In this document: one piece after another, positions 162 through 2,380 of the stretch | How the letters are laid out: every line of letters starts with the position of its first letter | How positions within the stretch are numbered: the first letter of the stretch is position 1 | DNA from: Virgibacillus sp. YIM 98842 | GTDB lineage: Bacteria > Bacillota > Bacilli > Bacillales > Amphibacillaceae | Length of the DNA: 24,000 bases | Direction: 5' to 3' | Assembly (NCBI RefSeq): GCF_010994035.1 | Contig: NZ_WIXN01000021.1 | Location: 14,584-38,583 of the forward strand | The notes under the pieces: model-generated | Database searches by the model: none | What the model was told of the DNA's origin: nothing | What the model saw: only the letters and a program-made list of their open reading frames with translations | Made by a program: the position numbers and the translations under genes

Positions 162-836
162 TCAGTCCTCCTCCACACGTGCTGCCGCATATTCCCTTAG
201 CTCTGAAGCAAACGCCTCAAATTGCTCAGGCTTTTCCGTTTGTTCATTTCCTTCGTACTTTTGAACACTGCCGTCTTTATACTGCAGCCAAAGCTTCCAG
301 GAATACCCATCCTCTGATTCTGAATCAGGTGCCGGCTCATCCGGCCACTCCTGCACATGGTGAGCGTCTAAAATATCTATCACTTTTTCCGCATCGCTTA
401 ACTGCACAATTCCCCCCTGGGCACGGAAGCCGCGATGATTGATGACAGGGTGTACGTGCATTTCATTATTGGCAATATCAATGGCCACCCCTGAATCTTC
501 AAGCGGGATGTCGATGGAATGTTCAGCAAAGTACACCTTGATCACTTCGTCGACAGGCTTTTCTTCTGTTGCCTCAGGTGCCTGTGCAATATGTTTAAAT
601 TTGAAAATATCCTTATCGGCCATATTGTTTTCCTCATCCTCATTATTATTTTGTCCGTCCCCGTTTTGCTCCTCATCCACATTCTCTTCCTCATTTTCCT
701 CATTGCCCGCGTTCCCATCATCATTTTGCGCTTGCCCATTTTGCCCGTTGTCTGTCTGAACGTCATTTTCAGATTGCCCGCATCCGGCTAACAGCAAACA
801 AGTAATAAGCATTGCATAACCTAGCATTTTTTTCAT
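162..836 (-). CDS. Secreted lipoprotein with a long acidic Asn/Glu/Asp-rich linker and a ~130-aa C-terminal domain of unknown family; candidate immunity protein for the upstream LXG toxin
   Basis: N-terminus MKKMLGYAMLITCLLLAGCGQ has a signal peptide and an LLAGC lipobox. The low-complexity linker runs QNDDGNAGNEENEEENVDEEQNGDGQNNNEDEENN. The start codon overlaps the stop of the LXG gene (ATGA, 833-836). Its position directly 3' of a polymorphic toxin is the canonical immunity position. Confidence 0.75.
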   Translation of the reverse strand: MKKMLGYAMLITCLLLAGCGQSENDVQTDNGQNGQAQNDDGNAGNEENEEENVDEEQNGDGQNNNEDEENNMADKDIFKFKHIAQAPEATEEKPVDEVIKVYFAEHSIDIPLEDSGVAIDIANNEMHVHPVINHRGFRAQGGIVQLSDAEKVIDILDAHHVQEWPDEPAPDSESEDGYSWKLWLQYKDGSVQKYEGNEQTEKPEQFEAFASELREYAAARVEED

Positions 837-2380
837 TCGTTTACACCTTCATTCATTGACTCTAAAATTTCATCCATAAACTCCCTGGATTCAGGCAGGT
901 ATACATCTACACTTTCTAATTGTTCGTCTCTGAATTCCCCTTCTTCAATCATAATGCTGCCATAATAACTGGCGAATCCTTCCATGTTTGGCTCTCTTAC
1001 CCGCTCGCCGTTATCATCGATCCAGTAACTGGCGTTATGATGTCCCCATTTCCCGATAATTTCATTCACCGTAGCACCGCCATAAATATCCGATGCATTA
1101 TGATGGGCATCTGTACGCAGCTCATCGGACAGCTGAACCCGAATGGTTTCATACAATTCCTCTTCTTCACTAGTTAATGCAAAATCTGATGGTCCTCTAT
1201 AAATAAATTCATCTGCAATATTATTCACCATATTTACTTTGTCTTCCTCATTCAGATGCTGATACGCCTCCTGATTCAGCTCTGCTTCCAGGTCAGTACG
1301 TATCCGGTTCTCTACGTCATCATACATACGATCGGATAAGTTTTGTCCATCAATCGTAAAAGAATTGGTGTAGTACCCGTCCATCCCTTGATCTGCTCCA
1401 CTATAGTAGTCAATGGCATGCCCCAGTTCGTGAAAAAATGTAAAATAAGCTCCCCGGTCATTCACTCTGTCATTTTCCACATTAAATGTAATGGCATTAT
1501 CGGAAGGATAAAATACTCCGCTGTCCGTTGTACTCGTTATCTCAAACCGATCCAGGTACTCCAGTGTCAGTGTTCTGTATGGCTCCTCTGCCGTATACAT
1601 TAGATACTTGATTCCCAAAATATCCTGCGTTTCCAGCGGATCCAAAAAGTTATCGGTTTTTTGCGCATGGTCCGGATGTTGATCTTCATATTTTAAAACC
1701 TCCATTACTTTTTCCAGATCATCCGGGTTGTTTCTCAAGTATTCCCCATAATGCTCCTCTGCTTTTCTGGTATAATGAATATCATCAATCCTGCCGGCCC
1801 AGTCCATGTTCATTCCCTTTGTAGAAAAGGTTCCGCTTGCGCTATTGAACCCATTTCCATTTTGCAGCTCCGCAATTCCTGTGGCCACATTCTGCGCCAG
1901 TTCCATCGCTGTCTCATAATTGCTGCTTGAGGATGCATTAAATGTATGCAGGCGATTTAATTTATCTTCCAGCCCTCGTTTCATATTATACAGAATACCG
2001 GTCATGGAGCGAGCAAGCGGCAGGGTTTCTTCTAACGCCTCCGTTTGCCGAATAAGGTTGTCAATTTGCTGAATTTGCCCCAATACTTCCTGTTCTACCA
2101 CATCCGTTGCCGCCACTTCTGACTGGAACGCTTCCGGATAACGGTCGTTTTGGCGAATAAGTTCCTCACATAAATAAATAATGCCCTGTGCAAGGGGCCT
2201 GTGGGTTTGAGCCATAAAATTTTTAGCAGAATCATAGGACTGTCCGCGCAATAGCATTGTACCTCTAAATCTATCAATGGATTGTATTGCTTTTTCCATC
2301 CCCTGGATGATCTCAACACACATATGGTTCATACTTTGTCTTTGTATTTGCGTTTCTCCAAGATACATATTCAAGCTCAT
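833..2380 (-). CDS. LXG-domain polymorphic toxin (T7SSb substrate type) with a C-terminal HExxH zincin-like metallopeptidase toxin domain
   Basis: The N-terminal ~200 aa are helical and carry the LXG signature region MLLRGQSYDSAKNFMAQTHRPL (compare B. subtilis YxiD ALKGKGGDAIRTFYEECHKPFL, from memory). The C-terminal region contains FFHELGHAIDYYSG (codons 1418-1432) and a later NMEGFASYYG. The ORF extends to 2407, but the ATG at 2380 has a better RBS (GAAGGTAGG, 7 nt spacing). That start also places the LxG motif at residue ~43-45, as in other LXG proteins. Confidence 0.8.
   Translation of the reverse strand: MSLNMYLGETQIQRQSMNHMCVEIIQGMEKAIQSIDRFRGTMLLRGQSYDSAKNFMAQTHRPLAQGIIYLCEELIRQNDRYPEAFQSEVAATDVVEQEVLGQIQQIDNLIRQTEALEETLPLARSMTGILYNMKRGLEDKLNRLHTFNASSSSNYETAMELAQNVATGIAELQNGNGFNSASGTFSTKGMNMDWAGRIDDIHYTRKAEEHYGEYLRNNPDDLEKVMEVLKYEDQHPDHAQKTDNFLDPLETQDILGIKYLMYTAEEPYRTLTLEYLDRFEITSTTDSGVFYPSDNAITFNVENDRVNDRGAYFTFFHELGHAIDYYSGADQGMDGYYTNSFTIDGQNLSDRMYDDVENRIRTDLEAELNQEAYQHLNEEDKVNMVNNIADEFIYRGPSDFALTSEEEELYETIRVQLSDELRTDAHHNASDIYGGATVNEIIGKWGHHNASYWIDDNGERVREPNMEGFASYYGSIMIEEGEFRDEQLESVDVYLPESREFMDEILESMNEGVNE

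Follow-up and report, generated by a model that had tools for sequence, protein, structure and literature searches.

An LXG toxin of Virgibacillus with a predicted zincin domain remotely related to anthrax lethal factor and the Pro-Pro endopeptidases, encoded beside a probable lipoprotein immunity gene

What kind of toxin is attached to an LXG export domain when the C-terminal part of the protein carries an HExxH motif and belongs to no annotated family? The question is raised by a 524-codon open reading frame (ORF) in a 24,000-nucleotide stretch of the genome of Virgibacillus sp. YIM 98842 (contig NZ_WIXN01000021.1, positions 14,584 to 38,583; this whole stretch is referred to as the window, and positions are counted from its first letter). 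The original prediction, made from the letters alone, had likened the C-terminal domain to the zincins of MEROPS family M34, namely anthrax lethal factor (LF) and the Pro-Pro endopeptidases (PPEPs), with a large insertion ahead of the third zinc ligand. Our comparisons largely support this domain as a remote, insertion-bearing relative of M34 rather than a canonical member of that family. We consider it likely that 162..2829 on the reverse strand is a three-gene module of a type VIIb secretion system (T7SSb), made up of a Lap1-like helper, the LXG toxin and a lipoprotein immunity protein, in which the toxin would be an extracytoplasmic protease related to the ATLF (PF07737) and M34 enzymes (Table 1).

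The motifs and codon coordinates that had been reported for the gene at 833..2407(-) are exact. Its translation contains FFHELGHAIDYYSG, NASDIYGG and NMEGFASYYG, and the segments AYFTFFHELGHAIDYYSGADQG, NASDIYGGATV and EPNMEGFASYYGS can be read in it, with H326 encoded at 1430-1432, E327 at 1427-1429, H330 at 1418-1420 and E476 at 980-982 (residue numbering here and throughout follows the 524-residue ORF). The active-site helix of LF had likewise been given correctly, the PDB alignment showing LF FIHEFGHAVDDYAGY, and the 12-residue stretch HELGHAIDYYSG of the Virgibacillus protein matches LF HEFGHAVDDYAG, as read from the PDB alignment, at 8 of 12 positions. Specifically, HELGHAID aligns with HEFGHAVD of LF (H686, E687 and H690) and with HETAHAID of PPEP-1. 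Conservation was assessed in 149 diverse full-length domains drawn from a library of 1.84 billion proteins, and it argues that HELGH is not a chance HExxH, because H326, E327 and H330 are each 100% conserved among these members. Several positions beyond the motif are nearly as invariant: E476 is kept in 148 of the 149 (99%), D333 and Y461 are each conserved in 99%, and A479 in 97%.

Residues 200-524 gave no match to Pfam or NCBIfam families, or to PDB sequences by phmmer. At the level of family profiles, a profile of 26 trimmed toxin domains (A2) compared with all PDB sequences returned LF and nine PPEP-1/Zmp1 entries as its ten best matches, over the HExxHAxD helix and at E-values of 0.13-0.3 (0.13 for LF). 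An AlphaFold2 model of the domain built on the family alignment (predicted local distance difference test, pLDDT, 95.6; predicted template-modelling score, pTM, 0.92) opens with a helical region at its N-terminus. A sheet of three strands and then the helix bearing HExxH follow; after four further helices and a hairpin come the helix with E476 and, last, two C-terminal helices. The best match of this model in a Foldseek search of the PDB was LF (1j7n_B, E 0.18, probability 0.92, TMq 0.36, root-mean-square deviation 8.8 Å), with mostly LF entries in the top ranks and Zmp1 at rank 22. The profile and the structural result are each weak when taken alone. Profile–profile alignment with 77 bona fide PF07737 proteins, which were collected by a PPEP-1 search, joined the intact family to ATLF over the strand and HExxH helix (hhalign probability 68%, P 4.9e-5, PPEP-1 92-129) and over a second, colinear segment, in which the E476 helix and the C-terminal helices align with the E185 helix and the C-terminus of PPEP-1 (P 4.2e-4).

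Deletion of residues 357-457, an insertion discussed below, makes the likeness significant. In this form the family aligns with ATLF at an hhalign probability of 96% (P 6e-9) over positions 92-192 of PPEP-1 in the mature-domain alignment, a reversed template giving 1.3% as a control; the result is independent of any one boundary, since all 24 combinations of excision boundaries gave 91-96%. Similarly, a MAFFT/HMMER profile of the insertion-excised core from 31 diverse members (A6), searched against the whole PDB, matches LF at E 6.2e-7 (profile positions 14-130 on LF 656-771) and PPEP-1 at E 0.005-0.01; neurolysin, at E 1.6, comes next among zincins. Domain I of LF, which is catalytically dead and lacks HExxH, is separately matched by the same profile in its C-terminal helices (residues 208-249), so this match is not a generic HExxH effect. 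The C-terminal helices of the toxin (491-523) also match LF domain IV and the C-terminal helices of PPEP-1, and ATLF is the strongest Pfam family for the excised members (7 of 31 match, best E 4.5e-6). In the PDB profile and Foldseek searches the LF/PPEP zincins rank first for the intact domain, though weakly, and the profile comparisons become significant once the insertion is excised; in this sense the kinship with M34 that had been proposed is supported.

The arrangement of the putative active site is consistent with such a relationship. DSSP applied to the model assigns strands to domain residues 90-93, 95-101 and 106-110 and the active-site helix to 123-140, and model and alignments together place HELGH (326-330) in the helix that follows three strands, as in M34/ATLF proteins. 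In the model, E476-G-F-A479 stands at the start of a later helix (domain residues 275-287). The suggestion that E476 supplies the third zinc ligand agrees with its alignment to Glu185 of PPEP-1 and Glu735 of LF in a shared E-x-F-A motif, and E476 is accordingly predicted to bind the metal together with H326 and H330. Given as PPEP-1/LF, the equivalent residues are H142/H686 for H326, E143/E687 for E327, H146/H690 for H330, D149/D693 for D333, E185/E735 for E476 and A188/A738 for A479, where the PPEP-1 numbers come from the insertion-excised hhalign alignment and the LF numbers were counted from the excised-core HMMER alignment. The catalytic and ligand roles of these residues in LF and the PPEPs are well established. 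HMMER at first put the Tyr/Glu segment of LF on DRMYDDVENR, which made D364 and E366 candidates for the third ligand; E366 was rejected, being variable.

The catalytic tyrosine appears to lie elsewhere than had been thought. It had been sought in ASDIYGG, where Y442 is only 85% conserved, is otherwise replaced by Phe, Ile or Leu, and sits inside the insertion; on conservation, we reject this segment both as a catalytic-tyrosine motif and as an aspzincin motif. Y461 is more likely to be the catalytic tyrosine, as judged from conservation and alignment. It is aligned with Tyr178 of PPEP-1 in the insertion-excised hhalign comparison, and it has no alignment to Tyr728 of LF in HMMER. Y461 stands 15 residues before E476 (14 residues between them, as against 6 in the PPEPs), whereas the M34 catalytic tyrosine stands about 7 before the glutamate (Y728 in LF, Y178 in PPEP-1), and the stretch from Y461 to E476 includes an additional hairpin of 8 residues.

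The spacing from HExxH to the glutamate is 150 residues in the toxin as against 49 in LF (H686 to E735) and 43 in PPEP-1, and thus lies outside the compact spacing of M34 (~43-49 residues). An acidic helical insertion at about residues 360-435 had been proposed to fill this gap. An insertion is indeed present, as the rise in hhalign probability from 68% to 96% upon excision indicates; it is slightly bigger than proposed, spanning 357-457, and is placed in the loop that precedes the M34 catalytic tyrosine. AlphaFold secondary structure resolves it into helices at 357-377, 387-401, 413-429 and 433-445 (158-178, 188-202, 214-230 and 234-246 in domain numbering) and a loop to ~457. Its acidity is real, with 24 Asp/Glu against 8 Lys/Arg, but it is not special, the whole domain having 75 against 24. 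Within the insertion, D364 (1316-1318; 97% conserved), D440 (1088-1090; 98%) and H456 (1040-1042; 97%) are without counterpart in LF or PPEP-1, and a second metal site or a site of substrate recognition could be built from these residues.

Upstream of this domain, the match to the LXG family (PF04740) scores 42.9 bits against a cut-off of 26.5 and is thus above the Pfam gathering score. B-Raf matches at E~0.3 (phmmer against the PDB) fall in this LXG part and were dismissed as noise. The toxin very probably starts at the ATG at 2380 (Met10), which would give a protein of 515 amino acids. A GGTAGGA-type ribosome-binding site stands ahead of this codon, both the site and the MSLNMYLG N-terminus are conserved, and at the place of the upstream ATG of the window (2407) a syntenic relative (L007) carries a TAA in frame, so that this ATG is probably unused; with a start at 2380, the true residue numbers are those used here minus 9. 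Purifying selection acts on both the toxin gene and the immunity gene: in comparison with L007, whose toxin is an 84%-identical syntenic ortholog, dN/dS is 0.10 for the toxin gene and 0.16 for the immunity gene.

The start of the downstream lipoprotein gene overlaps the toxin stop by 4 nt, an overlap that suggests translational coupling. The N-terminus of its product gives weak lipoprotein-type matches in an NCBIfam scan and is followed by an acidic, low-complexity linker of ~55 residues (~22-75) rich in Asn, Asp, Glu and Gln, with pLDDT below 50. The alpha/beta domain beyond it is covered by no Pfam or NCBIfam family. A model of this globular part, based on an alignment of seven sequences, has block-mean pLDDT values of 70-97, mostly above 85; its best Foldseek match is Mago nashi, a weak one (E 0.02), and the structure search returned no known protease-inhibitor fold. 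Only seven proteins were found in a homolog search with the immunity domain. The Oceanobacillus-like, Listeria and Enterococcus loci have homologous lipoproteins (18-43% identity) encoded right after the toxin, no Firmicute locus examined lacks one in this place, and the lipobox cysteine and signal peptide are present in 8 of 8 aligned Firmicute downstream proteins. From this synteny and these sequence features, the lipoprotein is probably the cognate immunity protein. The extracytoplasmic target that had been suggested for the toxin gains indirect support from the conserved downstream lipoprotein and its invariant lipobox cysteine. In one Enterococcus locus (L004:5570-8284, JBNEQE010000004.1) four tandem lipoprotein paralogs of ~220 amino acids follow the toxin, and then two small genes; this looks like an immunity-gene array.

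A mode of action may be proposed from this architecture, homology, conservation, synteny and selection, with metal binding, proteolysis, site of action and substrate class as its predicted elements. The LXG domain would direct export of the toxin via T7SSb, and its C-terminal 325 residues would act as a zinc endopeptidase distantly homologous to the ATLF/M34 enzymes. In this enzyme H326 and H330 of the active-site helix and E476 of the later helix would bind zinc, E327 would serve as general base and Y461 would probably stabilise the transition state, while the four-helix insertion may add a wall to the substrate cleft and determine specificity. The toxin would act on a rival Gram-positive cell from outside its cytoplasm, this site being the most likely because the probable cognate immunity protein would be anchored on the outer side of the membrane, and would cut a surface-exposed or membrane-anchored protein at a specific site. 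We favour cleavage of a surface protein over peptidoglycan since M34 enzymes are sequence-specific protein endopeptidases.

Table 1. Coordinates of the features of the toxin–immunity module in the window (residues in the numbering of the 524-residue ORF)
Feature	Position	Strand	Remarks
LXG polymorphic toxin gene	833..2407	-	mechanical ORF of 524 aa; likely start ATG 2380, giving 515 aa
LXG domain, residues 27-189	1841..2329	-	T7SSb targeting; Pfam PF04740, E 6.6e-11
C-terminal toxin domain, residues 200-524	836..1810	-	divergent ATLF/M34-like zincin; no Pfam/NCBIfam family
Zincin core, first half, residues 289-339	1391..1543	-	three-stranded sheet, then active-site helix
HELGHAID (H326, E327, H330, D333)	1409..1432	-	two predicted Zn-ligand His, predicted catalytic Glu, Asp common to both families
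Four-helix insertion and loop, residues 357-457	1037..1339	-	not in LF/PPEP; near-invariant D364, D440, Y442, H456
Y461	1025..1027	-	candidate catalytic (transition-state-stabilising) Tyr; 99% conserved; aligns with PPEP-1 Tyr178
Glutamate helix, residues 474-486	950..988	-	E476, predicted third Zn ligand, and A479; helix at domain residues 275-287
Two C-terminal helices, residues 491-523	839..937	-	Y-L-P-E-S-x-x-F-M-D segment typical of ATLF
Downstream lipoprotein gene, 224 aa	162..836	-	probable immunity; signal peptide, lipobox LLLAGC (Cys19), ~150-aa alpha/beta domain
Small helical T7SS accessory, 115 aa	2482..2829	-	Lap1-like; NCBIfam TIGR04197 T7SS_SACOL2603, E 3.4e-17

Several observations weigh against this interpretation. 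The intact toxin gives no PF07737 match at E≤1 and so falls below the threshold of the Pfam ATLF model; among 26 intact relatives only one matches this family (E 0.0048). No Foldseek match in the PDB reaches E≤1e-3, so that the structural likeness to LF is weak, and the significance of the profile comparisons needs excision of an insertion whose boundaries were chosen after scanning the 24 combinations. D364 or D440, as invariant as E476, might be the ligands instead. Extracellular action is argued for only by the nature of the immunity protein. An intact HExxH is moreover no guarantee of activity, as the PPEP-like CD1597 has an intact HEXXH and showed no proteolysis in vitro (PMC11460543). 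Finally, none of the T7SSb core genes (EssC etc.) occurs in the 24-kb window, and export of the window copy of the toxin is uncertain in the absence of the second helper gene, Lap2.

The alternatives differ in the family to which the domain would belong, in whether it would still be active and in where and on what it would act. We regard it as quite unlikely that the domain is a zincin outside M34, whether of the M91 (NleD/HopH1) or Tox-MPTase1-5 type or an aspzincin-like enzyme with D364 or D440 as third ligand. Sub-threshold Pfam matches to Peptidase_M91, DUF4344, DUF6782 and MPTase-PolyVal point in this direction, as does the fact that M91 is matched by more members than ATLF (4 versus 1 intact, 9 versus 7 excised), but M91 reaches only E 0.014 at best for intact and 0.00088 for excised members (cut-off 25 bits) whereas ATLF reaches 4.5e-6. 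The conservation of D364 and D440 equals that of E476, and the SDxYGG segment loosely recalls the aspzincin motif GTxDxxYG; the spacing of S-D-x-Y-G-G is nevertheless different, and no aspzincin structure appeared in the PDB sequence or Foldseek searches. Tox-MPTase4 has been given as a metallopeptidase of LXG proteins (Zhang et al., 2012; PMC3482391), yet no Tox-MPTase Pfam model matched the family, intact or excised. In the PDB searches only LF and PPEP-1 score, with neurolysin at E 1.6, and the E-x-F-A helix and the two helices after it match ATLF, including LF domain I with its missing HExxH. That the protein is an inactive pseudo-protease acting as a binding-only scaffold, or a decaying relic of a module that is no longer exported, seems very unlikely. 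The absence of Lap2/DUF3958 in the window and in L007, the Lap1 pseudogene of the latter and the inactivity of CD1597 in assays (PMC11460543) would fit such decay, but all residues of catalytic type are intact, with 97-100% conservation in the family, and the toxin and immunity genes keep a dN/dS of 0.10-0.16 even when these two Lap2-less loci are compared.

As for the target, action in the cytoplasm of the target cell, with a lipoprotein that either is not the immunity protein or acts during export, is in our view unlikely. Most characterised LXG toxins in the literature are cytoplasmic NADases or nucleases, and in one relative (L006) the downstream protein has no evident signal peptide; set against this are the lipobox cysteine and signal peptide of all eight Firmicute downstream proteins, the tandem lipoproteins in Enterococcus, which are typical of immunity genes, the 4-nt overlap with its suggestion of translational coupling, and the precedent of TelC, an LXG toxin with a cell-envelope target (lipid II). 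The lipoprotein immunity gene, implying as it does an extracytoplasmic site, is also compatible with a cell-wall hydrolase that would cut peptidoglycan stem peptides or cross-bridges and lyse rivals, and peptidoglycan is the most obvious extracellular target in Gram-positive bacteria. We nonetheless hold this to be improbable: the homologues LF and the PPEPs are endopeptidases on extended polypeptides, which they need as substrates, no LysM, SH3b or PG_binding domain was found by Pfam, and no likeness to M23, M15 or LD-peptidases appeared in the PDB profile or Foldseek searches. The known substrates of PPEPs are adhesins (PMC11460543). A protease related to ATLF/M34 that acts on a protein outside the cytoplasm is thus the interpretation we prefer. 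An extension of it is tentative, though conceivable: the toxin may be the founding example of a large, unannotated class of antibacterial protease toxins delivered by T7SS, LF/PPEP-derived zincins in which the insertion, with D364, D440 and H456, would provide a new recognition or second metal site, rival Gram-positive bacteria would be killed or disabled by one site-specific cut in an essential extracytoplasmic protein, and a new family of lipoproteins with a Mago-like alpha/beta fold would serve as inhibitors.

The toxin domain is widespread yet unannotated by Pfam and NCBIfam. A word-indexed search with residues 202-524 returned 42 relatives, nearly all of them LXG proteins of ~510-525 amino acids, from Oceanobacillus, Evansella, Pseudogracilibacillus, Listeria booriae, Enterococcus and metagenomes, and the A2 profile found 1177 matches at E≤1e-3 and 482 at E≤1e-10 among 1.84 billion cluster representatives (50%-identity clusters). 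Some distant members have other N-terminal regions, among them helical trafficking regions that are not LXG. For example, P0125 (382 aa) has a WXG-like, non-LXG N-terminus (GWVGGDATQF), and P0100 (736 aa) has a long coiled-coil/Gly-rich N-terminal region with a GNGRHR segment, which we take to resemble a ParB-type motif. A 312-residue protein from a Logan assembly (P0035) is a natural chimera in which an N-terminal DUF3958 (Lap2-like) domain is fused to the toxin domain from the ERDRANDRG loop onwards; neither the LXG domain nor the helical N-terminal portion of the toxin domain is present in it, and it may be an orphan toxin cassette or have been left behind by recombination. L006, whose downstream protein was mentioned above, is an actinobacterial-type relative, and the site of action may differ in its lineage.

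The gene content around these toxins is similar across five loci, in an Oceanobacillus-like genome (L001), Listeria booriae (L003), Enterococcus (L004 and L005) and a Bacillaceae contig (L008), where two small helper genes precede the LXG toxin and a protein of ~190-235 amino acids is encoded downstream. The 115-residue Lap1-like protein of the window is 50% identical to the protein encoded by the first of the small genes upstream of the L001 toxin. The second helper is a DUF3958 protein in L001, L003, L004 and L008, and neither helper of L005 has a Pfam family. In the window and in L007 this Lap2/DUF3958 gene is missing, the spacer between helper and toxin (2408-2481) being 74 nt long (~100 nt when counted from 2380). 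Either export has come to do without Lap2, or a copy located elsewhere takes its place, or some other reason maintains the module. In the corresponding region of L007 (3200-3960), a stop and a frameshift make the Lap1-like gene a pseudogene.

Within the helper–toxin spacer of the window, a strong sigma-70-like site (TTGACA-17-TATTAT, 11 of 12 consensus positions) is found at 2473..2445(-). Promoter-like sites show no excess over shuffled controls (10 seen, 9.2 expected), and terminator-like sites are fewer than in such controls. The rest of the window is of ordinary chromosomal Bacillaceae type, with an Rrf2 regulator, a flavohaemoglobin, OpuAC, a nitrilase-family gene and a subtilase. The Rrf2-family regulator and the flavohaemoglobin (globin, FAD and NAD domains) are divergently arranged at 3577-5377, adjoin the toxin module and are syntenic in L007; they look like a nitrosative-stress pair of the NsrR-Hmp type.

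Among known proteins, the closest counterpart of the toxin domain is domain IV of LF (M34, PF07737; 1J7N), which gives both the best profile match (E 6e-7, excised) and the best structural match in the PDB. The two share HExxHAxD, the E-x-F-A helix and C-terminal helices with a (Y/A)-P-E-x-x-x-F-(M/I)-D segment, and both belong to secreted toxins of Bacillales. They differ in that the Virgibacillus toxin has a spacing of 150 rather than 49 residues and a 100-residue four-helix insertion with conserved D/D/H, lacks the domains of LF that bind protective antigen (PA) or are VIP2-like or helical, and would be exported via LXG/T7SSb, where LF uses Sec and PA. LF targets mammalian mitogen-activated protein kinase kinases, whereas the Virgibacillus toxin is encoded with an immunity gene and is therefore presumably aimed at bacteria. 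PPEP-1/Zmp1 and PPEP-2 (M34; 5A0P, 2N6J), with which hhalign gives 96% and aligns H142, E143, H146, D149, Y178, E185 and A188 of PPEP-1, are extracytoplasmic Firmicute enzymes, as would fit a surface-protein substrate. In contrast to the toxin, they are Sec-secreted proteins of ~200 amino acids that cut adhesins of the producer itself and have neither an immunity gene nor the insertion. No evidence was obtained for Pro-Pro specificity of the toxin.

The concept of an LF-like zincin as a C-terminal warhead has been advanced before, in the Tox-ALF-metallopeptidase domains predicted in toxins delivered by Photorhabdus virulence cassettes (PVC) or the type II secretion system (T2SS), with a cytoplasmic Imm-SuFu as immunity protein (Zhang et al., 2012; PMC3482391). 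The Virgibacillus toxin differs from these in its LXG (T7SS) trafficking and its unannotated lipoprotein immunity protein, and in not being detected by the ATLF model. Its genetic layout, with Lap helper or helpers, LXG toxin and immunity gene, is that of TelC/TipC in Streptococcus intermedius, and both systems imply a target in the cell envelope; TipC, the immunity protein of TelC, is membrane-anchored and extracellular. The chemistry is unrelated, since TelC is a lipid II phosphatase and the Virgibacillus toxin, whose module lacks Lap2/DUF3958, is a predicted zincin. TelC degrades lipid II (2026 T7SSb review). The T7SSb LXG toxins characterised so far include NADases, nucleases, a lipid II phosphatase and pore formers. 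A protease toxin is not mentioned in the 2026 review of Lactobacillales T7SSb, and our literature search found no characterised LXG metalloprotease, the only entry being the in-silico catalogue of 2012 (Zhang et al., 2012; PMC3482391).

If the toxin is active, it would add proteolysis at the cell surface to the means of contact-dependent antagonism among Gram-positive bacteria, and would tie the lineage of anthrax LF and the PPEPs to interbacterial warfare. Its immunity proteins would then represent a natural family of protein inhibitors of enzymes of the M34 type. Conservation of the catalytic residues and the pairing of toxin with immunity gene make each of these propositions directly testable.

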